From a virus: a stretch of DNA of 29,763 nt. This document shows positions 1,062 to 28,920 of this stretch, one piece after another (position 1 is the stretch's first letter; the number at the start of each line of letters is the position of its first letter). The stretch spans positions 1-29,763 of the IMG/VR virus record IMGVR_UViG_2706795548_000001; one strand, given 5' to 3'. Under the pieces are notes generated by a model. That model was not told where the DNA came from, ran no database searches, and saw only the letters and a program-made list of their open reading frames with translations. Position numbers and translations under genes: made by a program.

Positions 1062-1082
1062 AAGATTTAAAAATGTTGGCAT
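1062..1082 (+). promoter_or_regulatory. Class A promoter
   Basis: AAGATTTAAAAATGTTGGCAT, identical to reverse complement of 28900..28920. Confidence 0.8.
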
Positions 1083-1098
1083 TTTGTGTTTCTTTGGC

Positions 1099-1773
1099 AT
1101 GAGCGATACACAAGTAAATCAAAACCCCAGTTTAATATACCCTGGTCCAATTTTTCAATTAAGGACCAGTTGGGTATACAAAATAATAATTGATGACCAG
1201 AAATATGCTATCGACTGCAGGCAATATGTAAGCCACAGTGGGTTGACAACAGAGGGATGCTATCAGATAGAGCTTAATAAATATAGGCAAATTAAATTAA
1301 GGCAAGTTAGAGGTTTATGGATTGAAATCGCCAAGAAAATGGAAGTTGATTCCGATTTCAAATTTACCAGAGAGAACTTAATTTTGCCACATGTATTTTT
1401 GAGGGCTTATGAGGATTTTCTGCAATATTTAATGCCTTACAAAAAGTACCTAGTTAAATTCAACAATTACGGTTTTACTGTTTATATCGCAAAGAAAGCC
1501 CCTGAACTAAAGCCAAAAAGTCCAACGATAACGCAAGGGAAATTAGAAATTTATAAGATGGAAGAAGTTCCATCGACAATAGAATTTGTACCATGGCAGT
1601 TGAACTTTTATGGACATTATGCTGTTGGAGATGTGAATTTGAAATTTGCTAAAGATGGTATACTAGTAAAAGTTGATGACGAGTTGACGATTAGAGCTTT
1701 AGGTTATAATCCAATATCTTTAGGACCTGGGATTTATCTCCTGGTTCACCCCCCAGAAAAGAGTAGAGATTAA
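1099..1773 (+). CDS. acrIIIB1: AcrIIIB1-like anti-CRISPR protein (SIRV2 gp48 family)
   Basis: CxxYxSxSGxTxEGCxQ...RQVRG block, LVKFNNY, QGKLEIY and C-terminal YLLVHP...D match SIRV2 gp48 as recalled; start moved from TTG 1084 to ATG 1099. Confidence 0.7.
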   Translation: MSDTQVNQNPSLIYPGPIFQLRTSWVYKIIIDDQKYAIDCRQYVSHSGLTTEGCYQIELNKYRQIKLRQVRGLWIEIAKKMEVDSDFKFTRENLILPHVFLRAYEDFLQYLMPYKKYLVKFNNYGFTVYIAKKAPELKPKSPTITQGKLEIYKMEEVPSTIEFVPWQLNFYGHYAVGDVNLKFAKDGILVKVDDELTIRALGYNPISLGPGIYLLVHPPEKSRD

Positions 1774-1887
1774 CAGTCAAAGTTATTTTTATTTGTTTTT
1801 GTGTTCCTATTTCTTTAGTTTGCTAATTTGAACCTTCAATGTATAATCGTAATATTTAACATATGAGTTATACAATCGTGATTCCTT

Positions 1888-1946
1888 ATGAATTCATTAT
1901 AGTAAGATTTAAATACTTAAGATTACAAGTATATATTGGGGAAATG
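1888..1946 (+). promoter_or_regulatory. Class B early promoter
   Basis: ATGAATTCAT-N6-AAGATTTAAATA; 1904..1942 matches reverse complement of 26690..26728 at 37/39. Confidence 0.8.
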
Positions 1947-2180
1947 GGAATGGAAAATCAAAACAAAATAAGTGATTTCAAAAGTTGTTTAAAGTTTTTT
2001 AATATACCAGATATGCCGTTTGAGGCATTAAGTTATTCGGAAAAAGAGTTGTACAACATTTGCTATAGGTTTTACAAAGCAGGCGACTTAGATTTCGACA
2101 GTGTTGATACTTCTGCATTAGATGCTGAAAATAAGAGAAAGTTATCTGAGTTAGTAAGCCAAATTTTAGATACATTTTAA
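1944..2180 (+). CDS. Hypothetical small protein
   Basis: Track start 1863 runs through the promoter; ATG 1944 or 1950 is the likely start. Confidence 0.75.
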   Translation: MGMENQNKISDFKSCLKFFNIPDMPFEALSYSEKELYNICYRFYKAGDLDFDSVDTSALDAENKRKLSELVSQILDTF

Positions 2181-2198
2181 CAAAGGGTGTAGGCTACT

Positions 2199-2375
2199 GT
2201 GAGAGTCGTAACATTTAAATTAGAGGAAACGTTGTTGGAACAATTAGACAGCCTTGCAATCAAATATCAATTAACAAGAAGTGAGATAATCAGAAAAGCC
2301 ATAGAAAAGCTGATAGAAGAAGAGAGAAGCAAAGAACAAATTCCAAAGGCAAGAGTCGAAAAGATTAGGCTTTAA
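2199..2375 (+). CDS. Ribbon-helix-helix (CopG-like) transcription regulator, 58 aa, not in ORF track
   Basis: Hand translation [58 protein letters not shown]; beta-strand plus RSEIIRKAI helix. Confidence 0.85.
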
Positions 2376-2383
2376 GTCATTTA

Positions 2384-2409
2384 TTTTTTTATGGTCTATT
2401 TTTTTCACT
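2384..2409 (+). terminator. Repeated T-rich intergenic motif
   Basis: TTTTTTTATGGTCTATTTTTTTCACT between convergent genes. Confidence 0.55.
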
Positions 2410-2435
2410 TTTGACATAATATTTCTATTTCTTTA

Positions 2436-2882
2436 TTATTTGTCTTTAGCATTCCTCTCTTTTTGCTTAAACATGTATTGCAATACTTTCCTTATTGTTT
2501 CGATATCAAGATTTAAAATTTCAAAATGTAAATAATAATATTTTCCAAACCTTCTCTGCATTTCTTTATAATCTATTTGTGTATTTGTTGCAATTAGTCG
2601 ATGATAATGTAATTTGTGTAATTTACCACGTTCAATAACTGAAAATATCTCTGCCTGGTATTTCGTTTTGATGTATTCTTTTGGCGGTAAGTATATCTCT
2701 CCATTTGTCGCTTTTGTCTTCCTTTTTCTCTTCTTTTTGCCTTTTTTTGTAGTTTCAGTCATTAGGTAGAGATATTTGAAATTTTCGACTTTGCTAAGAA
2801 AATTTCGCAGTTTCTCTACTGTAGACTCTGAGATATTGTATTTTATTACAATCTCTGCGATAATAAGGTCTTGATCTTCCAC
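2436..2882 (-). CDS. rep: HUH-superfamily Rep nicking protein (SIRV1 ORF119-like)
   Basis: HUH motif LHYH and catalytic YxxK motif (QYMFK); position next to SvtR-like and ssb genes. Confidence 0.8.
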   Translation of the reverse strand: MEDQDLIIAEIVIKYNISESTVEKLRNFLSKVENFKYLYLMTETTKKGKKKRKRKTKATNGEIYLPPKEYIKTKYQAEIFSVIERGKLHKLHYHRLIATNTQIDYKEMQRRFGKYYYLHFEILNLDIETIRKVLQYMFKQKERNAKDK

Positions 2883-2918
2883 AAGAAAAAAAGAGGTGAA
2901 AACAAAAAAAAGATTTCT

Positions 2919-3077
2919 TTATTTATCCGTTTCGTCTTCAGATTCTGGCAGTTGATCCACAAATTTCCTAATTAGATCATTTATTGTGATACCATGATTA
3001 ATACAGTATATTTTTAGCTTTTTATGTTGTTCTTTTGTAAGCCTTACTGATATTAATACCTTAGCTTCTCCGGACAT
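2919..3077 (-). CDS. svtR: SvtR-like RHH repressor, 52 aa, not in ORF track
   Basis: Hand translation MSGEAKVLISVRLTKEQHKKLKIYCINHGITINDLIRKFVDQLPESEDETDK; LKIYC resembles SvtR LKVYC; lies upstream of rep. Confidence 0.7.
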   Translation of the reverse strand: MSGEAKVLISVRLTKEQHKKLKIYCINHGITINDLIRKFVDQLPESEDETDK

Positions 3078-3154
3078 GGCGTTGTCACTTCTTGTATTAT
3101 TTGATTACATTTAAAAGCAGTAAAGATTTGGATAATACTAGTTACTATGATTTT

Positions 3155-3175
3155 AAGATTTAAAAATGTTGTCAT
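3155..3175 (+). promoter_or_regulatory. Class A promoter
   Basis: AAGATTTAAAAATGTTGTCAT; 3148..3178 is a perfect 31-bp inverted copy of 25296..25326. Confidence 0.8.
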
Positions 3176-3201
3176 CAAATCTTCATTTACGGTGTTTGGA
3201 A

Positions 3202-3483
3202 ATGAAAAACCTAACTCGGATGATCTCTGTCCGAGTTTCCAAGACACAATACCAGTTTTTTTTAATGTATAAGCAAGAATTAAAGGAAAAGTTGTTAAAA
3301 AAGGTGGGAGAAATGGAAAATATAAATATTAAATTGGACCCAACAAAAGATAAAGAAATTTATGACAATTTAATATCATTCAGAGTACCTTACCAATATT
3401 TCCAGAAAATTGAAGAGATAGCAGATAAAAATCAAGTGAAAATAAGTGATGTGATAAGAAATATTCTATTCAGTGGTGAATAA
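3202..3483 (+). CDS. Tandem RHH-like DNA-binding protein
   Basis: Two RHH-type strands (ISVRV, ISFRV), second followed by KISDVIRNIL helix; track start 3166 lies inside the promoter motif. Confidence 0.65.
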   Translation: MKNLTRMISVRVSKTQYQFFLMYKQELKEKLLKKVGEMENINIKLDPTKDKEIYDNLISFRVPYQYFQKIEEIADKNQVKISDVIRNILFSGE

Positions 3484-3484
3484 A

Positions 3485-3865
3485 ATGGCAACTTTGGAAG
3501 AAATTTTCAATGAATTAAGAGACAAAGCGAAACAAAGCGGAAAGCCGGCAACAAGAGTACTAAAGATCAAGGGGCTAAAAAGGTTAGTTATACAGTTGAA
3601 TGCTATACCCAATGGCAATAGTGTAAGATTTTCAATGACAGTACATAGTCAGAGAAACTACAAGAAACAGTTAGGAATTGTTGCGGGAGATGCAGATGAT
3701 TTTGCAATTATCGCTAAATTCTTGCAGAGTCATAAGGATCTATTGGATAAATATGTAAAATTTACAGTTACTAATAGCAATAATGAAGTTGAAGTAGATC
3801 TTGGAGAAGAAAATGAAGAGCCAAAGAAAGAGAGGAAAAAGAAAAACGTGGAGGATGAGTTCTAA
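3485..3865 (+). CDS. Rudiviral ssDNA-binding protein (SIRV2 gp17/ORF131 family)
   Basis: RVLKIKGLKRLVIQLNAIP...MTVHSQRNYKKQLG core with charged C-terminal tail; upstream of ATPase and nuclease. Confidence 0.85.
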   Translation: MATLEEIFNELRDKAKQSGKPATRVLKIKGLKRLVIQLNAIPNGNSVRFSMTVHSQRNYKKQLGIVAGDADDFAIIAKFLQSHKDLLDKYVKFTVTNSNNEVEVDLGEENEEPKKERKKKNVEDEF

Positions 3866-4138
3866 ATGTCGTTACTAGAAGAAAATCCGGATTTAAATAC
3901 AATTAAAGATGCAATAGAAAATCAATTTTACAGATATCATACGTCAAGACTTGATGTTGTACTATTGCCAATTAGCGATAACATGGGAATATTTTATACA
4001 ATTTATACTATTGAATATGCCGATATTGAAAATATAGCGTCAGTAGGTCTCGAAAAGGGAGTTTATTATTTCAACAAAGAAACAAAAAGCCTTAAAATCC
4101 AAATTGGCAGATTTGAAAAGCAAATCAACTTAAGTTAA
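3866..4138 (+). CDS. Hypothetical protein
   Basis: 90-aa ORF abutting the ssb stop codon. Confidence 0.75.
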   Translation: MSLLEENPDLNTIKDAIENQFYRYHTSRLDVVLLPISDNMGIFYTIYTIEYADIENIASVGLEKGVYYFNKETKSLKIQIGRFEKQINLS

Positions 4139-4142
4139 TATA

Positions 4143-4167
4143 TTTTTTTATGGCTAATTTTTCTCAT
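4143..4167 (+). terminator. Repeated T-rich intergenic motif
   Basis: TTTTTTTATGGCTAATTTTTCTCAT immediately after stop 4138. Confidence 0.6.
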
Positions 4168-4240
4168 TTTTGTTTTAATATTACTACTTCTCAATTTACA
4201 ATTGGCATATTTTTGTGGGTAGTCGAGAGATATACAACAG

Positions 4241-4268
4241 TCATATTCATAATATTAACCATATGCAT
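4241..4268. promoter_or_regulatory. Core-gene upstream block
   Basis: 26/28 identical to 12761..12788; 4235..4268 vs 12755..12788 is 32/34. Confidence 0.7.
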
Positions 4269-4317
4269 TTTGCAGGGTCACGATAGATTAAAAGATGTTT
4301 TCACCAAATAATTTATC

Positions 4318-5625
4318 GTGGCATCTCTAGATGAATTCAAAAAGTTATTTGAAGAGAATTCATTTATTTTTAATCCTAGAGATGAAAATCGAATTTTATA
4401 CTACATCTTCAGAAATACTAACATTCCAGAAGAAAAGAAAGCTAACGCATTAAAGGCATGGCATTTGGGGAATGACAACCAGTATTTCGAAATGTATAAA
4501 GCCTTCACTGACGAAATAAAATTTATATCTAAAATTGTGAAATTTAAAGAGAAAGGTGGAGAAATTGTTGCTTACTTTCAGAATGGTTTCACTGGGCGTT
4601 TTGATCCCAGGATGTTGGCGGATAACCCGGATGACGCTTATAATTTAATGCAATCCTACTTGTTAGTTAAAATCAAAAAGACGACTGATAGTTGGGAAAT
4701 TTACGATATTATCCCAGTCGAGCCTGCAAAAAATGTTGATGTTGCAAGACAACTGTTGCAATTTGTAGAGGCTGAGCATATGACATATGCCGTTTTACTA
4801 TATGCTTTTGGTTATGACGTGGAGAAGATGGATTCGAATGATGCACTGCTAACAATTCCAAGATTTTCCCCGCTTTTTGTCTCACCATATTCAAAAAGAA
4901 GATATAACGTCATAGAAATTTCCAATCCTGGGACTGGGAAAACTTCAATTTTTACAATACTACAAGAAGTTTTTAATTTCAGATACTATACTGAGCCACC
5001 AACTTATGCCAATTTAGTCTATGATGCGAGAAATAATGTCTACGGTGCGGTCTATCTTGCTAAGGGGCTAATCTTTGACGAAATTCAAACTTGGAAAGAT
5101 AACACAAACAAGAAAAATATGGATACAATAAATTCAACATTATCGACAGGAATTGAAAATTGTATTTGGACAAGGGGGGCAGGGACTGAAAGTAAATCCG
5201 CAACGATTCACAGATGTTTACCAATAATATATGCGGGAAATCCAATAACCATGACTTTAGATAAATTTGCCTCACCAGATGTTGAGGATTATTTGTCGAA
5301 ATATGAAATTTTTACTCCCGCAATATTAGATAGATTTCACTTAATCCAAGTTACGATAAAGAAAACTTACGATAAAATTGGAAGTAGGAGGGTTCTTTAT
5401 CCTTCAGTTTTGAAGGCTTTAGTTGATCTCTTGCAAGAAAAACTAAATCAACAGAATCATTTTGTAGATTGCCAAAATTTCTCATCAAGAAGATATGATC
5501 AGGCTGTCGACATTCAGTTGTTGTTGAGAACTCTGGATTTGCAAAATGATGAGATTGAGAAAGATCAAGATGCGTTTTGTTCAAGACTTCAGCAATATAT
5601 GCGATTTATGAATTTGATAGGGTGA
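4318..5625 (+). CDS. Lon-like AAA+ ATPase (SIRV2 gp18/ORF436 family)
   Basis: Walker A SNPGTGKT, Walker B LIFDE, AILDRF arginine-finger region. Confidence 0.88.
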   Translation: MASLDEFKKLFEENSFIFNPRDENRILYYIFRNTNIPEEKKANALKAWHLGNDNQYFEMYKAFTDEIKFISKIVKFKEKGGEIVAYFQNGFTGRFDPRMLADNPDDAYNLMQSYLLVKIKKTTDSWEIYDIIPVEPAKNVDVARQLLQFVEAEHMTYAVLLYAFGYDVEKMDSNDALLTIPRFSPLFVSPYSKRRYNVIEISNPGTGKTSIFTILQEVFNFRYYTEPPTYANLVYDARNNVYGAVYLAKGLIFDEIQTWKDNTNKKNMDTINSTLSTGIENCIWTRGAGTESKSATIHRCLPIIYAGNPITMTLDKFASPDVEDYLSKYEIFTPAILDRFHLIQVTIKKTYDKIGSRRVLYPSVLKALVDLLQEKLNQQNHFVDCQNFSSRRYDQAVDIQLLLRTLDLQNDEIEKDQDAFCSRLQQYMRFMNLIG

Positions 5626-6257
5626 TAGAGACGGTTTACGAAAATAGGATTAAAGAGAGTTTTAAGAAGCTTTATCCAGAAGATACGCTTTACCCGTCAG
5701 AAATTGGACACTGTCTAAGGCGTTCAATTTTGGCAAGAAGAATTGAACATACAAAAAATTTTGCAAATGAAGTTGTTGATTATGGATTAGCAATCCACGA
5801 AGATGTTGAAATTTATTTCAAAGAGAAACTTAGTTGCGAAGCTGAGAAATCAATTGAGTATGAAATTGAAGGTGTAAAAATTTCAGCAAGAGTTGATTTA
5901 TTGTGTGGAAGCGATTTGATTGAGTTAAAGACAGTCCCACATTTTATTCGTCAGCCTTATCAAAGCCATATCATACAAGTTTCACTTTATTATTATATAC
6001 TGTCACAATTGAATTATAAAATTGATAATGTCTATCTTATTTATATAAATAGGCAAAATTATGATGTTCAAGAATTTAAAATTCAAAAAGATCAACTTGA
6101 TCAAGGCTTGAAAAATGCAATAGACTTCATCAAAAATTACAAAAAATATAAAGACGAACAAAATATATTTAAAATCCCAATTGGGGACACAACATTTTGT
6201 AAAAATTGCGAATTTAAGAACATTTGCTATGGTTCAATTAATAATTTTTTAAAATGA
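5622..6257 (+). CDS. cas4: Cas4-like PD-(D/E)XK nuclease with Fe-S cysteines (SIRV2 gp19 family)
   Basis: YPSEIGHCLR, ARVDLL..IELKT, QVSLY and CKNCEFKNIC; GTGA overlap with ATPase stop gives start 5622. Confidence 0.9.
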   Translation: MIETVYENRIKESFKKLYPEDTLYPSEIGHCLRRSILARRIEHTKNFANEVVDYGLAIHEDVEIYFKEKLSCEAEKSIEYEIEGVKISARVDLLCGSDLIELKTVPHFIRQPYQSHIIQVSLYYYILSQLNYKIDNVYLIYINRQNYDVQEFKIQKDQLDQGLKNAIDFIKNYKKYKDEQNIFKIPIGDTTFCKNCEFKNICYGSINNFLK

Positions 6258-6325
6258 GTGTATGATTCTCTGGATTACTCTCAGAGTGCTATGCTTATAA
6301 ATTACATATTATTAAGTATATTATT

Positions 6326-6649
6326 ATGAAAGGTAAATTTGACGATTGGAATAAATATAGATCAGACGTTAATAAAATAATACTTGAGTATTTCAATAAA
6401 GTTGGCATAATGGCGACAACAAGAGCTTTATATTTCTCATTTGCGCAAAAAATATTAGCAATTGTTAGAAAGCAAAAAGATGAAAATCTTATTAATAAAT
6501 TAATCGAGGGGAATATTAAATATTACGCAATGGCATTTGATGCAAATGAAAAAGTATTGCGTGATATTGTAAAAATTATAATTTTAGCTAAAATTGTAAA
6601 AATGAACCCTGATGATATATTGAAAGAAGTATTAACGCAGAAATCGTGA
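6326..6649 (+). CDS. Major-capsid-protein paralogue (SIRV2 fold, lacking N-terminal arm)
   Basis: Aligns with C-terminal part of MCP: GIMATTRALYFSFAQKI vs GVTGPMRAIYQGYGLKV; EGNIKYYAMAFDAN vs AGLKAYYVSAFGAN. Confidence 0.7.
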   Translation: MKGKFDDWNKYRSDVNKIILEYFNKVGIMATTRALYFSFAQKILAIVRKQKDENLINKLIEGNIKYYAMAFDANEKVLRDIVKIIILAKIVKMNPDDILKEVLTQKS

Positions 6650-6665
6650 TAGTATCGCCGATACA

Positions 6666-6708
6666 CATATTCCTAATATTAATTATATGCATATTAAGCA
6701 TTCAATTT
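6666..6708. promoter_or_regulatory. Core-gene upstream block (MCP promoter)
   Basis: 6674..6708 matches 12770..12804 at 33/35. Confidence 0.75.
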
Positions 6709-6745
6709 TTATAAGCTATAAATTCAAATAACTAAATGACAAAAC

Positions 6746-7150: not shown

Positions 7151-7230
7151 ACTTAAAAGCTAATTTTCAATTTTTTTATCTTTTTCTACTTCTTGTTTTG
7201 CTTAAAAATGTAATCTTCAAACGTTAAATT

Positions 7231-7455
7231 ATGTTTGAAGAATATCTAAAGCAAAAAGGTTTTGAACCACATCATATTTCAATTTTAAAAGATTTCTTGA
7301 TTGAAATAAGAGAAGCGCTAAGCACAAATGTTAGCAATTATGATTTAGATGAAATTATAAATTCAATTGTTGAATATTTCGCAACAACATACAGATTACA
7401 AAAAGAAGATCTTTATCAACTTGTGAATGAGGCAATTGAGGACGGTGTTGTATGA
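7231..7455 (+). CDS. Small helical hypothetical protein
   Basis: 74-aa ORF abutting the glycosyltransferase start. Confidence 0.8.
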   Translation: MFEEYLKQKGFEPHHISILKDFLIEIREALSTNVSNYDLDEIINSIVEYFATTYRLQKEDLYQLVNEAIEDGVV

Positions 7456-12760: not shown

Positions 12761-12804
12761 TAATATTCATAATATTAATCATATGCATATTAAGCATTGA
12801 ATTT
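12761..12804. promoter_or_regulatory. Core-gene upstream block in divergent promoter
   Basis: TAATATTCATAATATTAATCATATGCATATTAAGCATT; shared with 4241, 6666 and 24694. Confidence 0.75.
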
Positions 12805-14906: not shown

Positions 14907-14915
14907 CGTAACACA

Positions 14916-14943
14916 ATTCTTATAATGTATATTATGAATATTA
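14916..14943. promoter_or_regulatory. Core-gene upstream block, reverse orientation
   Basis: 23/28 to reverse complement of 12761..12788. Confidence 0.55.
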
Positions 14944-15005
14944 TCATTCAATATTGTGCAGTAGAATAAATTATAACTGAGATTGTAAATCTTACATAGA
15001 TAGAA

Positions 15006-18354: not shown

Positions 18355-19578
18355 ATGTCTTACGTAAGCAAATATTCCATAATTAGCTCATCTGCATGGA
18401 ATCAAATTGTACAAAATGCACAATTGATTAACAGTATGTTGCAACAAACATTAAATACGATACAACAACTCGGTAATATAAATGCACAAGTAAACTATTC
18501 AAATTACCAAACACAACAACAAAATGCAATAAATATAATACAAAATCTTTTTAATTTCTTGCAAAATCCAACAATAATAACTCCTACTCCAAATATTCCA
18601 ACTGCAAGTCCTGGAATGACATTAACTGCAAACATGATGAATTCAATGACAAATGCAATACAAGAATTGTATAATTCAATAATGCCAACACCTTTAACAG
18701 AAATTTCAGAGGTTTTTGGAGGAGATATTGTAACCTCAGATCACTGGAATAAAATTGTTAAAGCAATAAATAAGCTAAAAAACATATTTAATGTAATAAA
18801 TGTGTCATTGGAAAACAACAAATTTGTACTAACAGAACCATATGCATTTATAGATCCTGAGGCAGTAGTTTCTGAAATTACTGCAGAATTTCTTGTTAAA
18901 AATCATATTTTATACATATTTATATATAACCCGCCAGGGAAATCAGGTACATGGTATATTTTCTCTGGTACAGAAAAAATAGATAATATTTTTATCGGTG
19001 GCGGTGTTGTAAACTTTAGACCAAGTGATTGCATAAAAATACAAAATATGTACTTATATGTGCATAATAGCAATGTATACCCATATGGCAATTCAAAAAT
19101 AGAAAATATAACAATTGTAGGCGATTTTGTTTCAATAGAACCAACAGATAATTCAATAATAGAAAATGCGCTAATTGTTGGAGATAACGGTACAATATCG
19201 CCAGATAATAATGCAATAATAAAAAGCGCTATAATAATTGGGAACAATCCTGGTGTTTCGCCGACCAATAATTCAATAATAGGAAATATAACAATTGATG
19301 GCAATAGCGGTAATATAGTGACATGGGATAACGCAACAATTGGAAATATGTTAGTAATGGGAAACAATAACTATATAACTACATATGATTCATCAGCAAT
19401 TCAAAATCTTTTCGTATGTGGGGAACAAAATAAACTTAATATATATCCTTCATCTTCAGTCCCGGGTTCAGGTATTATAAATCTCTATTTGTGCAATTCT
19501 AACAATACTGTCGGTAGCGGAGTACAAAATATAATACAAAATTCCCCAATATGCCAAGTTGTTTGCGCTTCAAGTTAG
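18355..19578 (+). CDS. Beta-helix (20-aa repeat) fibre or adhesin-like protein
   Basis: Three lts..wN..v..i-like motifs, then about 8 twenty-residue IxNxxIxGxN repeats; ATG 18355 follows the previous stop. Confidence 0.7.
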   Translation: MSYVSKYSIISSSAWNQIVQNAQLINSMLQQTLNTIQQLGNINAQVNYSNYQTQQQNAINIIQNLFNFLQNPTIITPTPNIPTASPGMTLTANMMNSMTNAIQELYNSIMPTPLTEISEVFGGDIVTSDHWNKIVKAINKLKNIFNVINVSLENNKFVLTEPYAFIDPEAVVSEITAEFLVKNHILYIFIYNPPGKSGTWYIFSGTEKIDNIFIGGGVVNFRPSDCIKIQNMYLYVHNSNVYPYGNSKIENITIVGDFVSIEPTDNSIIENALIVGDNGTISPDNNAIIKSAIIIGNNPGVSPTNNSIIGNITIDGNSGNIVTWDNATIGNMLVMGNNNYITTYDSSAIQNLFVCGEQNKLNIYPSSSVPGSGIINLYLCNSNNTVGSGVQNIIQNSPICQVVCASS

Positions 19579-19596
19579 CGTAAATCTGCCTACAAC

Positions 19597-19624
19597 ATGC
19601 TTATATTAAATATTATGAATATTG
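19597..19624. promoter_or_regulatory. Core-gene upstream block, reverse orientation
   Basis: 23/28 to reverse complement of 12761..12788. Confidence 0.55.
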
Positions 19625-19669
19625 CTATTGCGTATTCTGCTTAAAAATGTCCACATTAGGGATTAAAAT

Positions 19670-22511: not shown

Positions 22512-23765
22512 TTATTCTGGCGGTATTTCTTTAAATATCTCATCAACTGGAATACCTTGCATTTTTCTAATGACGTATGTCAGAATTCCAACAGTTGGTG
22601 GTATAAATATTGTTAAAATGTCGAAATATAGATTTCCAGTAAACATCTCTGACCTAAATTGTAAATTCACAAGTGAAGAGTACAAAACCATACTGGCAGT
22701 AAAAATTAGCACAATTGCAGATAATACCGCAGTCGGCAAAATTCTTCTGTCTTGCTTTATGAATTTCAAACTTGCAAACGCAACAATTAAATAATTCCAA
22801 AATATAAACCATAAATCGTCCACAATTAGGCTAACGTGGAATCCCAGATAATTCTCTATAAAATTGAAAATTTCTGCAATCGCAAAACTGACCAAAATTG
22901 AATTTGTCGGCGTGCCATTTTTAACATCTGCCAAGAAAGAAGGCAAAACTCTATCAAACGATAGTGCAAAGACAACTCTAGTTGTTGCCCCCGCATTTAT
23001 TAACGCATATAGCATATACCACGTTAGCGCAGATAATGCAACAATTTCTAAACTTAGATTTACGCCAACGATAGCTATCAAAATTGCAAATATTGCAGTC
23101 ACACTGTATGCAATAAAATACCCCGCAAGTAAACTTTTATTAATTTTTTGCATTTCACCTGCAAAATATGATGGAGAATTTATGAAAGCATATAAGGACA
23201 TTACAAAAAGCGCAGTCATAGTGAGAGTATTTGTATTTATCTCGAGTGTCGCAGGTAAAGTCACATGATTAAGATTAGTCGCAATCATAATTATAATACC
23301 AAGAATTTGGAATAACACTAGTCCAACAATTGCTTTAGCGTAATATTTCACTTTTGACGCTAACAAATAAATTAAGCCAATATAAACTGTTGTAACTGCA
23401 AATAGATCTAAATTTGATAAATAAAAGCGTATAAATTCTAGTGTCGCAAGTACTGGCATAGACATCCAAAATGACGTCAAAATTGCCATACCATTTATCA
23501 CACCGACAATTCCGCCAAAAGCTCTTGAAACATAAACATAATCTCCAGTAGATCTTGGAATTAATCTATTTAGCAAGTAGTAGTTTAGCATTAATGGAAT
23601 TCCTAAAACTGACGCTAAAAGAATTGCTAAAAATGCATCTGCGTGAATAAGAGAAAGGACATAGGCAACTGCCCCTGCGGGTCCTAAGAAAGCGAAATTT
23701 AACGAAAAAACATCCAATGGCTTAAATTCTTTAATTAATCCAGTTGACTGTCTTAGGAATTTCAT
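22512..23765 (-). CDS. APC-superfamily amino-acid permease
   Basis: FLRQSTGLIKE start, about 11-12 TM segments, FAGE and RVVFALSFDRVLP motifs. Confidence 0.88.
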   Translation of the reverse strand: MKFLRQSTGLIKEFKPLDVFSLNFAFLGPAGAVAYVLSLIHADAFLAILLASVLGIPLMLNYYLLNRLIPRSTGDYVYVSRAFGGIVGVINGMAILTSFWMSMPVLATLEFIRFYLSNLDLFAVTTVYIGLIYLLASKVKYYAKAIVGLVLFQILGIIIMIATNLNHVTLPATLEINTNTLTMTALFVMSLYAFINSPSYFAGEMQKINKSLLAGYFIAYSVTAIFAILIAIVGVNLSLEIVALSALTWYMLYALINAGATTRVVFALSFDRVLPSFLADVKNGTPTNSILVSFAIAEIFNFIENYLGFHVSLIVDDLWFIFWNYLIVAFASLKFIKQDRRILPTAVLSAIVLIFTASMVLYSSLVNLQFRSEMFTGNLYFDILTIFIPPTVGILTYVIRKMQGIPVDEIFKEIPPE

Positions 23766-23786
23766 ACCAATTTTACCGCCTGGAGT

Positions 23787-24635
23787 TTACATTTTTAAAC
23801 TTTTCTTCTTCTCCAGATACTTTCTAATAATTCCAGTATTTCTCCTTAATGCAGTATCAACAACTCCACATTTTCTATCAATATCTGGCTGAGTTATTGC
23901 ATATTTGTCTTGCTTAGCGAGAAAATACAAAATTGTAGTTGCAACAATTTTCGGGCTTTTCCCAGATAAAATGCCAGACTGCTCAATTTCTTTCGCAAAG
24001 TTAAGCGCTTTTTCTATTAATTCAGTTGGTAAACCAAGTCGTAAACCGCAACCTTTTATAAAATCTTCAACTGTAAAATTTGGAATTTTTTCGTCAAAAT
24101 TCTTTAAAACCTCAAAGTATGCCCCGATAAATCGCTTTGGTATGACCTTATATATCTTCCAAATTTTTTCAATATACTCGTCAAATGGCATCAAAATTCT
24201 CAATTTGCGATATGCCATATAGATAGAAACAAAGACAATAAGTTCAGAACCTAAGTATCTCAAATGTTTATTTTTCCACAACTTTTGCAAAATTCTACTT
24301 GCTTCTTGTGTTATAGTTTCATTACCTCCAATTTTTTGAACTGCCGTCGATAAAAATCTTAAAGCGTCAAGTAATGGCTTATTACTCACCGGATAAAGAC
24401 TTGAAATACTAACCTTTTTGGGTTTAATACCAACAGTCGGTAAAAACCCTGAATTAACAAAGACGTTTGGATTTATTGGAAAAGCTCTTGCCCTTTCCAC
24501 AAACTGCTCATTGTTGTAGGCTCTCCAGTCCATACCTTCATCTACAACTTTATCTTCTAGAACTTCTCCAGTCTCAGTACAAATATACTCTCCTCTTTCG
24601 GTATCAAACACGATTTTGTCAGATGGACAGTTCAT
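23787..24635 (-). CDS. tfb: Viral transcription initiation factor B (TFB/TFIIB) homologue
   Basis: CPSDKIVFDTERGEYICTETGEVLED..DWRAY ribbon and reader; two cyclin repeats with GKSP. Confidence 0.93.
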   Translation of the reverse strand: MNCPSDKIVFDTERGEYICTETGEVLEDKVVDEGMDWRAYNNEQFVERARAFPINPNVFVNSGFLPTVGIKPKKVSISSLYPVSNKPLLDALRFLSTAVQKIGGNETITQEASRILQKLWKNKHLRYLGSELIVFVSIYMAYRKLRILMPFDEYIEKIWKIYKVIPKRFIGAYFEVLKNFDEKIPNFTVEDFIKGCGLRLGLPTELIEKALNFAKEIEQSGILSGKSPKIVATTILYFLAKQDKYAITQPDIDRKCGVVDTALRRNTGIIRKYLEKKKSLKM

Positions 24636-24693
24636 ACGAAAATCTCAATTCGATTACATTTTTATTTCTTGCCAAGAACTACAATTTCAAACT

Positions 24694-24721
24694 TAATATT
24701 CAAAATATTATAAATATGCAT
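24694..24721. promoter_or_regulatory. Core-gene upstream block before tfb
   Basis: 24/28 identical to 12761..12788. Confidence 0.65.
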
Positions 24722-24763
24722 TGTTAGTTCAAATAAAGGCGATATAGAAATAGTATATCAAAA

Positions 24764-24789
24764 GTGAGAAAAATTAGGCATAAAAAATT
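24764..24789 (-). terminator. Repeated T-rich intergenic motif
   Basis: Reverse complement of GTGAGAAAAATTAGGCATAAAAAATT, adjoining stop 24788. Confidence 0.6.
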
Positions 24790-24931
24790 ATCCATATACA
24801 ATTTCTAAATAATGAAATAAAGCTTCACATTCTTCTGGATCAAGTTCTGCCTCTTCCAAAGCTAAGATAGTATCGGAACTGTAACCGTCAAGATTGTAAC
24901 CTTTTTGCTTTAAAACCGTCAAACAGTTCAT
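24788..24931 (-). CDS. 47-aa acidic protein downstream of acrIII-1, not in ORF track
   Basis: MNCLTVLKQKGYNLDGYSSDTILALEEAELDPEECEALFHYLEIVYG; GAGGTGA RBS overlapping the acrIII-1 stop. Confidence 0.75.
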   Translation of the reverse strand: MNCLTVLKQKGYNLDGYSSDTILALEEAELDPEECEALFHYLEIVYG

Positions 24932-24938
24932 GTTTACT

Positions 24939-25283
24939 TCACCTCACTCTTTCAATATAGTAAAGATCATATCCAATTTTTTGTAATTCATCTTCACTTT
25001 GAATTACATGCCCCTCTGGCAGTCTTTGCCTTAGCACAATCGCAATTGCGCTATCACCAACTTTGAAATAAATTGGAATTCTATTTGTCTCGACTGGCAT
25101 TCCTAATAAAGCAGACATAACACTGGCAGTTGCAGAATGCCCAATTGCCGAAATTACTTGTTGTGCATTATCTACAATATCTCTTGCCTCACTTATACTA
25201 ATTCTTTTTATTTTAAATTCTGCCTCATTATCTTGGATTGGGATAATTAAACTATTTAGGAGGTACAAGACCACTCGACTCAC
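24939..25283 (-). CDS. acrIII-1: AcrIII-1 viral ring nuclease (DUF1874, STIV B116 / SIRV1 gp29 family)
   Basis: 114 aa with signature AIGH, NR and QRLPEG residues. Confidence 0.9.
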   Translation of the reverse strand: MSRVVLYLLNSLIIPIQDNEAEFKIKRISISEARDIVDNAQQVISAIGHSATASVMSALLGMPVETNRIPIYFKVGDSAIAIVLRQRLPEGHVIQSEDELQKIGYDLYYIERVR

Positions 25284-25298
25284 CCTAAACGAAACTTG

Positions 25299-25319
25299 AT
25301 GACAACATTTTTAAATCTT
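25299..25319 (-). promoter_or_regulatory. Class A promoter
   Basis: AAGATTTAAAAATGTTGTCAT on minus strand before acrIII-1. Confidence 0.8.
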
Positions 25320-25323
25320 AAAA

Positions 25324-26166
25324 TCAAACAACTCTACAAAATTGCTTTTTCTTACATTCTCCAATTATATCTTCAAATTTAACACCGTCTATTTCTTCAT
25401 TATCGCCGTAATCTTGTAAAATTACTTTGTACATATTGTCTTCAACAACAAATTCAAAAACTTTGTAAAACCACGCCGTATGTCTTCCAGTATCGGCTTC
25501 TAGTGCTATCCAACCAATATTTGCCTCCCTCTTCCCTTCAAAGTCAACTATTTGTCTGCCTCTTGGAATAAATACTGCATTCTGCTTAAGTTTATTGTAT
25601 AAATCTAAATCATCATAATTGAAAATAAAAGTATCATGACCTAGAATTTTCCAATACACTTCCCATAACGCAAAGTGATCAATTATATCTGGCAAATCTA
25701 AGATATTGAAATTATCAATATTGACAACATAAGGATTTGCAATCTCAAATTTTTCAATTGAGCTCAACTTAGTTGCTAAATCGTTGGCAAATACTTTATT
25801 TAGTTTTGGACCATCAATAGTGTAATAATTGTAAAGTATAAGTCTATTATTGGAAATCACGCCATAAATCGTTGACTTATCGAATTTCCATAAAATGTAA
25901 TCAGTCACTATCATGTCTTGAACTGAAGGGGCATCTGGACCTCTTGGATGAGTATGCAAAACGGCATAAACGGTCTCTGGCATATACTTTTGCAAAGGAC
26001 TGAGATCTGCACTGCCTTTGTCCCCCTGGTAATAATCGGAGAACCACTCACCTAAAACAATTAGGTATTCCCTATCTGTAGACTTTGACTTTTGGTATAC
26101 ATCTTTCAAAAAATCTAAATTTTTAAAAATAGTAAGAACATTACTTCTGACTTTTGATCTAGACAT
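25324..26166 (-). CDS. JAB/JAMM (MPN+) zinc metallo-isopeptidase with C-terminal extension
   Basis: N-terminal REY glutamate and exact HxH-x7-S-x2-D motif (HTHPRGPDAPSVQD). Confidence 0.8.
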   Translation of the reverse strand: MSRSKVRSNVLTIFKNLDFLKDVYQKSKSTDREYLIVLGEWFSDYYQGDKGSADLSPLQKYMPETVYAVLHTHPRGPDAPSVQDMIVTDYILWKFDKSTIYGVISNNRLILYNYYTIDGPKLNKVFANDLATKLSSIEKFEIANPYVVNIDNFNILDLPDIIDHFALWEVYWKILGHDTFIFNYDDLDLYNKLKQNAVFIPRGRQIVDFEGKREANIGWIALEADTGRHTAWFYKVFEFVVEDNMYKVILQDYGDNEEIDGVKFEDIIGECKKKQFCRVV

Positions 26167-26187
26167 ATATCACCAATAAATCGTTAT

Positions 26188-26208
26188 ATGCCAACATTTA
26201 TCAAGATT
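26188..26208 (-). promoter_or_regulatory. Class A promoter variant
   Basis: TTGATAAATGTTGGCAT on minus strand, then GGTGA RBS. Confidence 0.6.
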
Positions 26209-26247
26209 TCACAGAAAATAAGAAATAGTAGAATTAATATTACGAAT

Positions 26248-26270
26248 GTGAAAAAAATAGTCCAAAAAAA
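26248..26270 (-). terminator. Repeated T-rich intergenic motif
   Basis: Overlaps a 27-bp direct repeat shared with 28968..28994. Confidence 0.5.
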
Positions 26271-26336
26271 TAAGTAAAAACAAAAATAGAGAGGTTAAAA
26301 GAAGGAAAGAGAAAAGAAGGAAAAGATAAAAAAAAG

Positions 26337-26681
26337 TTATTTTACCTTTATCCAACCTTTGTCAAAAGTAAAGACGTAAACTTCAATTTTTCCATCGTAC
26401 TCACTATAGTACGCCTCTGTTTCTTTTACAACAACTACCGGGTCAGTCTTAGGTATAATAATCTCAGTTGTGATTTCTTGTCTTTCGTCTTTTGAAATCG
26501 GAACTATGTCAGCGTCCCCAAACACAATTTTAACCCTATCATATAAGTCTTCTCTGAAATACTTCTCTATTTCTAACAAGTATTTTGCTTCTGGTTGCAT
26601 ATTTTTTGCCTCATTTAAGAGTTTTGCAATTTGATCTTCATTTAATTCTTCTACTTTTATTTCTTCTTTTTCTTGACTCAT
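26337..26681 (-). CDS. Hypothetical acidic beta-rich protein, terminal array
   Basis: ATG 26681 (track TTG 26696); IIPKTDPVVVV...YVFTFDKGW motif recalled from crenarchaeal filamentous viruses. Confidence 0.75.
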   Translation of the reverse strand: MSQEKEEIKVEELNEDQIAKLLNEAKNMQPEAKYLLEIEKYFREDLYDRVKIVFGDADIVPISKDERQEITTEIIIPKTDPVVVVKETEAYYSEYDGKIEVYVFTFDKGWIKVK

Positions 26682-26685
26682 TCTC

Positions 26686-26744
26686 CCACTCCTCAATATA
26701 TAGTTGTAATCTTAAGTATTTAAATCTTTCCACCATGAATTCAC
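26686..26744 (-). promoter_or_regulatory. Class B early promoter
   Basis: GTGAATTCAT-N6-AAGATTTAAATA. Confidence 0.8.
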
Positions 26745-26835
26745 TCAGAACCCCGTTTGCATATCTCATATTGTCAATATTAGCATTATACATTGTACAT
26801 TGAATTTAGCAAACAACAGAAATAGTATCTGTAAA

Positions 26836-26858
26836 ATGAAAAAAATTATTCAAAAAAA
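26836..26858 (-). terminator. Repeated T-rich intergenic motif
   Basis: Plus strand ATGAAAAAAATTATTCAAAAAAA. Confidence 0.5.
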
Positions 26859-26909
26859 TAAATAATGCAAAAAACAGAAGAAATAAGAAATAGAAAAGTG
26901 AAAAAAAGA

Positions 26910-27200
26910 TTAGGTTAAAGATTGATAAAGGATCTTTGCTATTTCTTCTCCCATTGGCGTTAACTCAACGTATCTCCTATACCGCCATGTCTCTTTAAAA
27001 AAGATCTTCTTGGTCTTTACTAAACCTTTACTCTCCAAACTTGTTGTATACTTGGATGTGCCGAATATTTCGTGTAACTCCCGGGTCCAAACTAACTGTT
27101 CCCCGTACCTAATTTTTGAATCGAGTAAAAAAATAAGAAGCATTTTTTCCTTATACGTTAATTCTGGTACCTTTTGCACTTCCATCACACTTACCACCAT
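26910..27200 (-). CDS. Winged helix-turn-helix protein (MarR/PadR-like)
   Basis: LESKGLVK...YVELTPMGEEIA wing and terminal helix pattern. Confidence 0.75.
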   Translation of the reverse strand: MVVSVMEVQKVPELTYKEKMLLIFLLDSKIRYGEQLVWTRELHEIFGTSKYTTSLESKGLVKTKKIFFKETWRYRRYVELTPMGEEIAKILYQSLT

Positions 27201-27248
27201 TATATATTTTAAACTGAGACTATTTAAATCTTCCTATCTTGAAATCAG
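27190..27248 (-). promoter_or_regulatory. Class B early promoter
   Basis: CTGATTTCAA-N6-AAGATTTAAATA; ATG 28 nt after TATA start. Confidence 0.75.
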
Positions 27249-27291
27249 TTGCAAGTAGTCAATTTGCACAACTTCAATTAAAATCTCAAAC

Positions 27292-27315
27292 TTGAGAAAA
27301 ATTAGGCAAAAAAAT
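27292..27315 (-). terminator. Repeated T-rich intergenic motif
   Basis: Plus strand TTGAGAAAAATTAGGCAAAAAAAT. Confidence 0.55.
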
Positions 27316-27378
27316 ATGCAATAAACAAAATGAGAGATTTAAAACAAAAGGTCTAAAAACAAAAAAATAGGGTAACTT

Positions 27379-27645
27379 TTATTCGAAAAGCAATTTGCCA
27401 AGAACTTCATCTGGGATTCTCATTACCGCCCAGAGTGATTTAACTCCTAACATGTAGTCACTGGTATATGTGCTATCTAGTAATTGACCATTTGAATCGT
27501 ACCAGTCCAAAAGTATATATTCGTCTTTGCCAGTTGGTTCAAGTATAATGCACTCCAGAACTTCTCCTTTGCGGTTCAACTTCCACACTACAATTTTCTT
27601 GTCTATATGTTGTTTCAAGTATTTGAAACTTTTTTTACGTGCCAT
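27379..27645 (-). CDS. Hypothetical 88-aa protein (paralogue of 27834..28100)
   Basis: 19/88 ungapped identities with its neighbour. Confidence 0.8.
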   Translation of the reverse strand: MARKKSFKYLKQHIDKKIVVWKLNRKGEVLECIILEPTGKDEYILLDWYDSNGQLLDSTYTSDYMLGVKSLWAVMRIPDEVLGKLLFE

Positions 27646-27648
27646 TTT

Positions 27649-27707
27649 TCTTTCCCCGTATTACTTTTCGTAACTGGAGTATTTAAATCTTTCCTTCATA
27701 AAATCAT
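27649..27707 (-). promoter_or_regulatory. Class B early promoter
   Basis: ATGATTTTAT-N6-AAGATTTAAATA. Confidence 0.75.
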
Positions 27708-27762
27708 GAAGTTTAACAGTTGAAAACGTAAATAGTTGCACAATAGAAATAGTATATCAAAA

Positions 27763-27787
27763 ATGAAAAAAATTAGGCAAAAAAATA
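27763..27787 (-). terminator. Repeated T-rich intergenic motif
   Basis: 27743..27785 matches 24744..24786 at 40/43. Confidence 0.55.
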
Positions 27788-27833
27788 GCTATCACAAATT
27801 ACAAGAAATAAAAAATGAGGAAAACGAAAAAAA

Positions 27834-28100
27834 TTATTCCCAGATCATCTCGCCTAAATCTTCTTCTGGTAATTCTTTTAATTCTGCAAATGAAGAAACT
27901 CCAAAGTATTTTAGTTCTGTTTTAGAACAATACTCAAACCACCCCTCATCATTAAAAAAGCAAACATAAACCGTTTTAGAATCCCCCTTGTCAAGTCGAA
28001 TTTCTACAAATTCCAACAACTTACAATTACCGTATTTGTAAACTGTTATTTTATTCTTTCCAATTTCTTTTATGTATTCAATCAACCCTTCTTTCACCAT
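27834..28100 (-). CDS. Hypothetical 88-aa protein (paralogue of 27379..27645)
   Basis: Shared GVxS...P.E.LG...E C-terminus. Confidence 0.8.
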   Translation of the reverse strand: MVKEGLIEYIKEIGKNKITVYKYGNCKLLEFVEIRLDKGDSKTVYVCFFNDEGWFEYCSKTELKYFGVSSFAELKELPEEDLGEMIWE

Positions 28101-28148
28101 ACTACTTTACGCAATCAGAGTATTTAAATCTTTCTTTAATGAAATCAC
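28090..28148 (-). promoter_or_regulatory. Class B early promoter
   Basis: GTGATTTCAT-N6-AAGATTTAAATA; 21 bp identical to 537..557. Confidence 0.8.
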
Positions 28149-28203
28149 TAAGATTATCTATCAACAACTAGAATTTTCAAACCATAGATTTAATATCTCT
28201 AGC

Positions 28204-28230
28204 ATGAGAAAAATTATGCATTAAAAAATT
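28204..28230 (-). terminator. Repeated T-rich intergenic motif
   Basis: Adjoins stop of 28229..28888. Confidence 0.55.
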
Positions 28231-28888
28231 ACAAAATTTTCATATTTAAAATCTTTGCAACATCTTTGTCAATTTGTTCCAAACTATCTTTAAAAAAGCA
28301 AGTAACATATCTCTTAATCTCAGGGGAATAGCATAATGTCGACTCTTTGAGCAAATTTGTTGTCACAGACATGTACATAATATCGTCTTTGTCTTTCTTC
28401 TCACCCATAGCAAAAAATCTGTATAAGTACCATTCTTCTAGTGTGCGGTCATACTTGCCAAATAATGGAAAGTGCCAAATTCTATACTTAAGATCTTCCC
28501 ACAATTCTGGATCTATTTCAGTTTTGTCACTTTGCTTTATTTTATCAACAACTTCGTCAAAATACAAAATAGCCAGGACTCTCTTTATTTTATATTGTGT
28601 AAGGACTACAGTTTTTGGTTTATTGTTCCAATAATAAACACTCACCATGTAGTAATACTTTGCATTATTTTCTAAATATGCATTAATCATTTTTTCAATA
28701 TTGATATTGAACAACGAAAAGAATATCATTTTCCTATATTCACTCTCTGGTTCCATATTTCTCAATTTTTTATCCTCATTATCAACATTAAAGGATTTTA
28801 TATCGTATGCAGAAAGATTTGGTTCATCAATTATTTTTTTAATTTCATTTTCGCTCAATTCGTTTGTTTCCAACTGATACCACCGCAT
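28229..28888 (-). CDS. Hypothetical 219-aa protein, terminal array
   Basis: Track ATG 28909 lies inside the class A motif; ATG 28888 is 28 nt after the TATA start. Confidence 0.8.
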   Translation of the reverse strand: MRWYQLETNELSENEIKKIIDEPNLSAYDIKSFNVDNEDKKLRNMEPESEYRKMIFFSLFNINIEKMINAYLENNAKYYYMVSVYYWNNKPKTVVLTQYKIKRVLAILYFDEVVDKIKQSDKTEIDPELWEDLKYRIWHFPLFGKYDRTLEEWYLYRFFAMGEKKDKDDIMYMSVTTNLLKESTLCYSPEIKRYVTCFFKDSLEQIDKDVAKILNMKIL

Positions 28889-28899
28889 CTCAAAACTTG

Positions 28900-28920
28900 A
28901 TGCCAACATTTTTAAATCTT
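28900..28920 (-). promoter_or_regulatory. Class A promoter
   Basis: AAGATTTAAAAATGTTGGCAT on minus strand. Confidence 0.8.

Follow-up and report, generated by a model that had tools for sequence, protein, structure and literature searches.

We here describe a 21-nucleotide (nt) sequence, AAGATTTAAAAATGTTGKCAT, which recurs in a rudivirus genome and is probably a strong promoter core, namely a subclass of the early regulatory sequence of that virus, with a conserved regulon that consists of the DUF1874 gene and an operon for a ribbon-helix-helix (RHH) protein and a single-stranded DNA-binding protein (the RHH-ssb operon). The window, i.e., the whole stretch of 29,763 nt that was analyzed (IMG/VR record IMGVR_UViG_2706795548_000001), holds a linear rudivirus genome almost in full, including terminal inverted repeats of 86 nt (1-86 versus 29662-29747, 88% complementary), and its nearest relatives in the phage collection are SSRV1, MRV1, and ARV3 of the genus Hoswirudivirus (~79-83% nucleotide identity). 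This genome is Acidianus rod-shaped virus 2 (ARV2, NC_029314), because two entries in Supplementary Data 1 of PMC11065993 (Bhoobalan-Chitty et al. 2024, Nat Commun), complement(26910..27185) and 3202..3483, are identical in coordinates and protein sequence to open reading frames (ORFs) of the window; the gp numbers used below were assigned via the same Supplementary Data 1 and by homology, except that gp38 was assigned by gene order. The ARV2 genome was assembled from a metagenome; SSRV1 is an isolate with Saccharolobus solfataricus as its host. Archaeal viruses carry many orphan genes and few known anti-defense proteins, and a promoter in common is among the few clues by which the latter can be found. 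The promoter subclass preceding two anti-CRISPR (Acr) homologues in ARV2, nonetheless, also drives an ssb operon found throughout Rudiviridae, so that a promoter match predicts co-expression but not function.

Four exact copies of the 21-mer were found in the window against 0.00 expected from 100 dinucleotide shuffles, and they lie 5' of the AcrIIIB1-like gene (gp03), the acrIII-1 gene (gp37), the RHH-ssb operon (gp09-gp10-gp11), and an ORFan of 219 amino acids (aa) (gp42), as an earlier sequence-only reading of this DNA had reported. Also as reported there, a variant copy is present 5' of the JAB gene (gp38): the 10-mer ATGTTGKCAT occurs five times (0.28 expected), and its fifth copy (26188-26197, minus strand) is exact. 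The four 21-mers, hereafter called class A, are made up of a purine-rich TFB-recognition element (BRE, AAAGA), a TATA box (TTTAAAAA), and a proximal element (TGTTGNCAT(CAA)); AAAGA and TTTAAAAA are found in 4/4 copies, while the JAB promoter has the weaker TATA sequence TTGATAAA. Two subtypes with either T or G in the element can be seen, with the T-variant pair (gp09 and gp37) being identical over 31 nt (3148-3178 versus 25296-25326) and the G-variant pair (gp03 and gp42) being 96% identical over 27 nt (1056-1082 versus 28900-28926).

Start codons are located 12-30 nt downstream of every copy (gp03, 1099; gp09, 3202; gp37, 25283/25274; gp42, 28888 for ATG or 28873 for TTG). In archaeal promoters, the center of the TATA box usually lies near -26/-27, and transcription is accordingly expected to start ~12-14 nt past the CAT, which would put the element with the variable center in the interval from TATA to the predicted start (about -23 to -8). 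After three of the copies, GGTG appears at a fixed distance and is followed by 6-7 nt and then by the start codon, which suggests short leaders with a Shine-Dalgarno sequence. This fixed spacing also suggests corrected starts, namely GTG 25274 in gp37 and possibly TTG 28873 in gp42; the second GTG of gp37, behind a GGTGA Shine-Dalgarno sequence, is likely to be the true start as in SSRV1 gp33. Judged from these sequence features, the motif is a real, strong archaeal promoter. A scan of IMG/VR with the 21-mer gave 0 matches, and one of metagenomes gave 21, none of which (0) was accompanied by protein similarity to the window; these metagenome matches look like chance or unrelated archaeal promoters. 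In two of the metagenome contigs (L022, 1604-1624; L023, 3920-3940), the identical 21-mer is part of a 36-nt extended match 5' of a signal-peptide-like ORF; the contigs are unrelated and have 42-43% GC, and the motif there is probably an unrelated archaeal BRE/TATA promoter.

When all upstream regions were compared, a common core, AAGATTTAAA, was found in 12 terminal promoters or gene cassettes of ARV2, and these can be divided into two classes. Eight of the 12 (gp01, gp02, gp04, gp39, an unannotated ORF with a winged helix-turn-helix (wHTH), gp40, gp41, and gp43) belong to class B, in which AAGATTTAAA is followed by TAC/AAG...TATATA-TGGGG and in which TGAWTTCA is present 7-8 nt 5' of the BRE. 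Class A has the same BRE/TATA core AAGATTTAAA together with TGTTGNCAT(CAA) between TATA and the expected start, and it forms, as far as sequence can tell, one subclass within the early regulatory sequence that recurs genome-wide in ARV2. Separately, we noticed that the class B core (532-541, 1888-1897, and 26737-26746 in the window; also SSRV1 gp35 and ARV3 gp02, gp03, and gp05) includes TTCAAnA, a part of the consensus ATnnTTCAAnAnnnnnAAAATG of the viral regulator SvtR, and that a CopG-type RHH protein, gp05, is co-transcribed from a class B promoter, both of which give a weak lead to an SvtR-like operator in class B. The consensus sites of SvtR and AvtR were also compared by eye with both classes, but the partial matches (e.g., TTCAAnA in class B) were too weak to count.

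The relatives of ARV2 keep class A at orthologous positions. The 21-mer is exact 5' of the RHH-ssb orthologues in SSRV1 (gp05) and MRV1 (gp04) and has three mismatches in ARV3 (gp08); class A is hence found on the RHH-ssb operon in 4/4 hoswirudiviruses. It is also exact 5' of the DUF1874 gene gp33 in SSRV1, with one mismatch in contig L034 from a Sulfuracidifex metallicus assembly. A 30-nt block, GATTT(T/A)AAGATTTAAAAATGTTGTCATCAA, is 100% conserved among ARV2 gp09 and gp37, SSRV1 gp05 and gp33, and MRV1 gp04, whereas the 5' untranslated region past this block diverges and the genomes are only ~80-83% identical. Full conservation of the block next to a divergent leader argues for selection and not for recent copying. 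Only the RHH-ssb operon and DUF1874 are class A clients conserved across the relatives; since the former is a Rudiviridae-wide ssb operon, class A would predict co-expression and not an anti-defense function.

A related sequence is found in a different genus. In SIRV2, AAGATATAAAAATGTCAT was present in seven copies against 0.04 expected: exact copies lie 5' of ssb (gp17), an Arc/SvtR-like RHH gene (gp15), and an AcrID1-family gene (gp46), one with a single mismatch lies 5' of gp20, and those with two mismatches lie 5' of gp09, 5' of gp12, and 21 nt 5' of gp36, which is followed by the DUF1874 gene gp37. The ssb promoters of SIRV9, SRV, and SBRV1 retain TATA and ATGT. The promoters of SIRV2 acrIIIB1 (gp48) and gp47, in turn, have AAAGCTTTATATA, which resembles class B of ARV2. 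Most promoters of SIRV1/2 are described to have a virus-specific GTC motif downstream of TATA (review PMC5569661, summarizing Kessler et al. 2004), and we interpret class A most readily as the form that this older type of rudiviral promoter, in which TATA is followed by ATGTCAT (the “GTC” motif of SIRV1/2), takes in hoswirudiviruses.

These comparisons also bear upon the possibility that recent gene conversion or reshuffling of cassettes between terminal units produced the exact copies, in which case the split into classes A and B would have no regulatory meaning. Terminal cassettes do share homologous promoters and homologous T-rich terminators (families D1, D2, and D8-D10), and long inverted repeats (I1-I5) join the two genome ends, as shuffling would predict. 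The class A block is, however, 100% conserved at orthologous sites in SSRV1, MRV1, and L034 while neighboring bases diverge, and its related form occurs in a different genus (SIRV2). Because of this conservation at orthologous positions and of the related form in another genus, purifying selection is indicated, and we regard the shuffling account as extremely improbable.

A different account was given by the sequence-only reading: ATGTTGKCAT is an operator that mirrors ATGAATTCAT of class B, a single regulator might act oppositely on the two classes depending on the position of its site, and class A marks gp42 and the JAB protein as strong anti-defense candidates. Its starting point holds, given that both recognizable Acr homologues of ARV2 (gp03 and gp37) are behind a class A promoter. 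Furthermore, AvtR provides an earlier example of an RHH protein from a virus that both activates and represses, gp42 is located in the variable terminal array and has been called an anti-defense gene independently in the ARV2 list of PMC11065993, and the cores of class A (TGTTGTCA) and class B (TGATTTCA) share 6/8 bases, a likeness that is indistinguishable from chance in AT-rich DNA. The proposed architecture of the sites is weakened, nonetheless. The ATG-N4-CAT pseudo-palindrome described for the element is a pattern at chance level in the window (24 seen versus 25.0 +/- 7.4 expected), and the mirroring has no statistical support: ATGAATTCAT occurs only twice in the window (532 and 1888), and the conserved core of class B in ARV2 and its relatives is TGAWTTCA(A/T)GA, with the flanking A and T being variable. 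In addition, an ssb operon that is kept throughout rudiviruses has a class A promoter as well, MRV1 has class A but neither a recognizable class B promoter nor a wHTH gene (although the MRV1 record may lack the genome ends), and gp42 has no homologue or usable fold. We regard this account as improbable.

Coming back to class A as a promoter core with a conserved regulon, we propose the following scheme. In ARV2, the class A promoter has also been placed before the AcrIIIB1-family gene gp03 and the ORFan gp42, which would probably be co-expressed with the conserved clients. The proximal element would act as a putative operator, at which a virus-encoded repressor might block the recruitment of RNA polymerase after an initial burst. 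The best candidate is gp09, because no other DNA-binding protein is made from class A and because 4/4 relatives keep gp09 together with this promoter; we put forward only tentatively, however, that gp09 specifically is the repressor or an autorepressor. RHH autorepressors that occlude promoters, such as SvtR and AvtR, are the rule in archaeal viruses, and, by analogy with SvtR and other RHH repressors, an element located between TATA and the start, as in class A, would be well placed for promoter occlusion.

Several points weigh against this scheme. The class A element has no significant palindrome (3-bp arms only), which is unusual for the operator of a dimeric RHH protein. The tandem-RHH architecture that the sequence-only reading assigned to gp09 might have explained an asymmetric site, but it is unsupported by a profile self-comparison (hhalign of the N-terminal versus the C-terminal half, 14.7%). 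The timing and the start sites, furthermore, are predicted from spacing rules, and the core genes of SIRV2 are described to use non-early promoters (PMC11065993); if class A corresponds to the GTC type of SIRV2, class A may not be immediate-early.

Alternatively, the element after TATA could be a part of the core promoter that is read by the basal machinery and sets promoter strength or selectivity for one transcription factor B (TFB), possibly the viral TFB encoded at 23787-24635 (minus strand). Indeed, ATGT stands right after TATA in many ARV2 promoters outside class A, such as those of the TFB gene, the transporter gene, and the genes at 7231 and 19670; the ssb promoters of other genera also keep TATA and ATGT, TFB is encoded by 4/4 hoswirudiviruses, and the class A site is without a palindrome; ATGTTGK, moreover, fits the consensus of the eukaryotic downstream TFIIB-recognition element (RTDKKKK), which is a lead rather than a test. 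SIRV2, however, has TATA-ATGTCAT promoters although none of its genes is annotated as TFB, so that the element does not appear to need a viral TFB, and TGNCATCAA, which is specific to class A, is absent from the promoter of the viral TFB gene itself. We consider a reading by the basal machinery rather unlikely. In its strictest form, TGTTGNCAT, which is conserved just 3' of TATA in four viruses with a TFB of their own, would be a downstream TFB-recognition element, and the viral TFB, instead of a repressor, would select the class A regulon. If true, a viral TFB that selects the ssb operon, the ring nuclease, the AcrIIIB1-like gene, and gp42 would mean a rudivirus with a private transcription program, but we find this form highly improbable.

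Much of the promoter-based logic is not new. A conserved strong regulatory sequence has been used to nominate anti-defense genes with ARV2 as an example (Fig. 1D of PMC11065993), and the ARV2 list there comprises gp01-gp05, gp09, gp36, gp37, gp39-gp43, and the unannotated wHTH ORF. Among these, gp03 is labeled AcrIIIB1, gp37 AcrIII-1, gp09 ADG.48 (putative regulator), gp42 ADG.49 (singleton), and gp36 pADG.12. The listed genes are those behind the AAGATTTAAA promoters, including co-transcribed ones, and the published regulatory sequence hence covers both classes A and B; in the text and supplementary tables of that paper, the TGTTGNCAT class is not separated from the class with TGAWTTCA upstream. 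The promoter-based linking of Acrs and the nomination of gp42 are, therefore, already known for ARV2 since 2024, and little is added here as discovery. What the present analysis adds is a division of the promoters into two subclasses that differ in their flanking elements, the tie to the GTC-type promoters of SIRV, the caution that comes from the ssb regulon, a module of JAB, ring nuclease (DUF1874), and a 47-aa protein that is shared with a bicaudavirus, and the nomination of the JAB gene gp38, which is not on the published ARV2 list as given in that paper.

Among the genes behind class A, gp03 is, by sequence, an AcrIIIB1-family member, with inhibition of type III-B being putative. Both gp03 (2.5e-71) and SIRV2 gp48 (7.6e-93) match phrog_6092 over the full length, the two proteins are 23% identical in BLASTP (E 1e-6), and gp03 is 49% identical to the AFV7 region of gp12, a gene listed as AcrIIIB1 in PMC11065993. 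We also noticed that the C-termini encoded by gp03 (1659-1745) and gp43 (ADG.50; 29075-29161) are alike, ...GI(L/V)(V/I)K.D...(S/G)L.PGIYL(L/M) (BLASTP E 0.004, 29 aa), and gp43 may thus be a distant paralogue. In gp09, residues 56-89 gave CopG/Arc-like PHROG matches, and the C-terminal half has a weak profile match to the RHH protein ORF56 of pRN1 (E 0.15), while the N-terminal half shows an SVRVS strand pattern with no significant match; no match to AvtR or SvtR was found in either sequence or profile searches. A gp09 gene is conserved 5' of ssb in several rudivirus genera, and gp10 has tblastn matches in all rudivirus genera that the phage collection includes. The MRV1 orthologue of gp09 (MRV1 gp04) is annotated with 72 aa, but a full RHH orthologue of 95 aa can be read from 968 (968-1252 of the MRV1 record, L005).

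The DUF1874 protein gp37 matches Pfam PF08960 (1.3e-30; residues 6-106 on profile positions 1-100 of 101) and is 52% identical to gp06 of the bicaudavirus ATV. It reads AIGHSATAS at residues ~46-54, a stretch kept in ATV gp06. The histidine in this GH(S)xTA stretch is a candidate for the catalytic residue, which in SIRV1 gp29 is His47. In PMC11065993, the motif prevalence for DUF1874 is 0.13 and SIRV2 gp37 failed as an Acr from its native promoter, making it doubtful that DUF1874 acts as an Acr during native infection; a preprint likewise disputes this role of AcrIII-1, which weakens class A as a mark of anti-defense. Downstream of acrIII-1, the small protein gp36 has homologues in SSRV1, SMV4, ARV1, and ATV, and the pADG.12 family includes SMV3/SMV4 members in PMC11065993; the 47-aa ORF is identified as gp36 because both it and pADG.12 match SMV4. 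The wHTH-like ORF has only a weak resemblance to the wHTH protein PH1061 (E ~1).

The 219-aa protein gp42 had been put forward as a strong anti-defense candidate. The nomination itself agrees with the published ADG.49, but the promoter as a mark of anti-defense is undermined by the class A copy on the ssb operon. No homologue other than gp42 itself was found among 5.8 billion clusters (word-indexed search) and 1.84 billion representatives (exhaustive HMMER), nor was any match in Pfam or PHROG; a single-sequence AlphaFold2 (AF2) model had a pLDDT of 34, and Atlas gave no usable match, leaving no usable fold. As an ORFan located in the variable terminal array, gp42 is plausible as an accessory or host-interaction gene candidate.

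The JAB protein gp38 has a catalytic motif, E...HxHx7SxxD, with E33, H71, H73, S81, and D84 being invariant in four homologues. It matches phrog_19077, “protease” (8e-104), but Pfam Prok-JAB only weakly (14.6 bits versus a cut-off of 25); the leads in Atlas are all of the JAB clan and score below 0.9, no sequence match was found in PDB, and an AF2 model from a four-sequence alignment was unusable (pLDDT 40). As for its promoter, the variant described by the sequence-only reading is indeed present in ARV2 but is conserved only in part: the 10-mer is exact in ARV2 and contig L034 (ATGTTGTCAT) but reads ATGTTATCAC in SSRV1 and is thus kept at 2/3 orthologous loci, while the 29 nt 5' of the element are identical in ARV2 and SSRV1. 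Gene order is stronger evidence for linkage of JAB than the promoter variant. In ARV2, SSRV1, and L034, neighboring genes of the same orientation encode JAB, DUF1874, and the 47-aa protein, and the same three are found together in ATV (gp09, gp06, and gp05, which are 40%, 52%, and 52% identical, respectively), where the JAB gene is split by a transposase gene (gp10) into gp11, the N-terminal part (phrog_24075), and gp09, the rest. This association would be compatible with a role shared with the ring nuclease, and gp38 is also a plausible candidate for an accessory or host-interaction gene. The coordinates of these and other features are collected in Table 1.

Table 1. Coordinates of promoter copies, genes, and repeated blocks in ARV2 (the window) and of the JAB module in other genomes
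Feature	Coordinates	Strand	Description
Class A copy, G variant	1062-1082	+	Promoter of gp03; ATG at 1099, 17 nt past the motif
Class A copy, T variant	3155-3175	+	Promoter of the gp09-gp10-gp11 operon; exact 21-mer
Class A copy, T variant	25299-25319	-	acrIII-1 promoter; begins 4 nt beyond the JAB stop codon
Class A copy, G variant	28900-28920	-	Promoter of gp42; exact 21-mer
JAB promoter variant	26188-26208	-	Weaker TATA TTGATAAA and exact ATGTTGGCAT
gp03	1099..1773	+	AcrIIIB1-family protein, 224 aa
gp09	3202..3483	+	RHH-type DNA-binding protein, 93 aa; candidate autoregulator
gp10	3473..3865	+	Single-stranded DNA-binding protein, homologue of SIRV2 gp17; Pfam PF21017 1.4e-59
gp11	3866..4138	+	Third gene of the operon, 90 aa; starts directly after gp10; orthologues SSRV1 gp07 and MRV1 gp06
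gp36	24788..24931	-	47-aa acidic ORF, co-transcribed 3' of acrIII-1; pADG.12
gp37	24939..25283	-	DUF1874/AcrIII-1-family ring-nuclease homologue
gp38	25324..26166	-	JAB/JAMM-type metalloprotease candidate, 280 aa
wHTH-like ORF	26910..27185	-	Unannotated; ADG.46, “ADa” putative regulator; class B promoter; orthologue SSRV1 gp37
gp42	28229..28888	-	219 aa from ATG; 214 aa from TTG 28873 (form on record in the protein collection)
JAB-DUF1874-47 aa module, window	24788-26166	-	
JAB-DUF1874-47 aa module, ATV (L033)	1583-4707		
JAB-DUF1874-47 aa module, contig L034	348-1726		
JAB-DUF1874-47 aa module, SSRV1 (L003)	23113-24491		
T-rich blocks	421-473, 985-1049, 2377-2441, 4136-4196, 24731-24786, 26215-26290		Probable terminators
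T-rich blocks, further	26803-26878, 27259-27334, 27730-27805, 28171-28226, 28951-29026		Probable terminators
Third upstream block	4241-4284, 6667-6708, 12761-12804, 14911-14959, 19592-19640, 24694-24722		Either orientation

Regarding the organization of the genome, we noticed a homologous T-rich block after each terminal gene, the coding-strand consensus of which is roughly TTTTTTTATGGCTAATTTTTTTCACTTTTGA.ATAATATT and which is probably a transcription terminator. Because such a block ends each of them, the terminal genes can be viewed as cassettes of promoter, ORF, and terminator; the block found 5' of the promoters of JAB and gp42 belongs, as terminator, to the gene before, and that at 4136-4196 lies 3' of gp11. 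The viral TFB homologue has 282 aa and is also encoded by SSRV1, MRV1, and ARV3; its promoter, AAGAAATAAAAATGTAATCG, is preceded by ATATTTATAATATT, a block also seen in the upstream regions of core genes. A third upstream block, ATATTCATAATATTAAT.ATATGCAT..., is present in either orientation 5' of core and structural genes, namely those for the ATPase, the major capsid protein, and TFB, the divergent pair 12737/12843, and the genes at 15006 and 19670. Also, several annotated starts are probably mis-set in view of GGGG/GGTG Shine-Dalgarno sequences, and, besides gp37 and perhaps gp42 as described above, the start would move to ATG 91 in gp01 (76-333), to the ATG ~12 nt after ATG 580 in gp02 (568-918), and to an internal ATG just after 1947 (~1950) in gp04 (1863-2180). 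At least four tandem repeats of 60 nt (20 aa) are found at 19081-19340 inside a 411-aa gene that follows the gene for a 1115-aa minor structural protein.

In comparison with known systems, the anti-defense gene sequences of PMC11065993 come from the same genome, the same logic, and the same nominees, but that paper, in its text and supplementary tables, draws no connection between the motif and promoters of the ssb type in other rudiviruses. As for the GTC promoters of SIRV, AAGATATAAAAATGTCAT of SIRV2 and AAGATTTAAAAATGTTGTCAT of ARV2 both stand 5' of ssb and differ by one TATA base and three inserted bases (TTG) after ATG, whereas the G-variant copies of ARV2 (gp03, gp42, and JAB) have GGC instead of GTC; the likeness to the motif of Kessler et al. 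is judged from the review. AvtR (AFV6 gp29) and SvtR (SIRV1 gp08), both small RHH proteins, act as repressors on their own promoters, as is proposed for gp09; AvtR is a single-chain tandem RHH protein that binds imperfect repeats as a monomer and can both activate and repress. A sequence match of gp09 to either protein was not found. Finally, the arrangement in ARV2 can be compared with the acr-aca operons of phages. An Aca-type inverted repeat overlapping the class A promoter is absent, with arms of 3 bp only; the candidate regulator is in another operon than the Acr homologues, the regulon includes a core replication operon, and the binding is putative. Nonetheless, ARV2 resembles the acr-aca operons in having a strong promoter on Acr-family genes, a small DNA-binding protein, gp09, whose gene comes first after the class A copy at 3155 and which is hence produced from the same type of promoter, and a conserved site that overlaps the core promoter.

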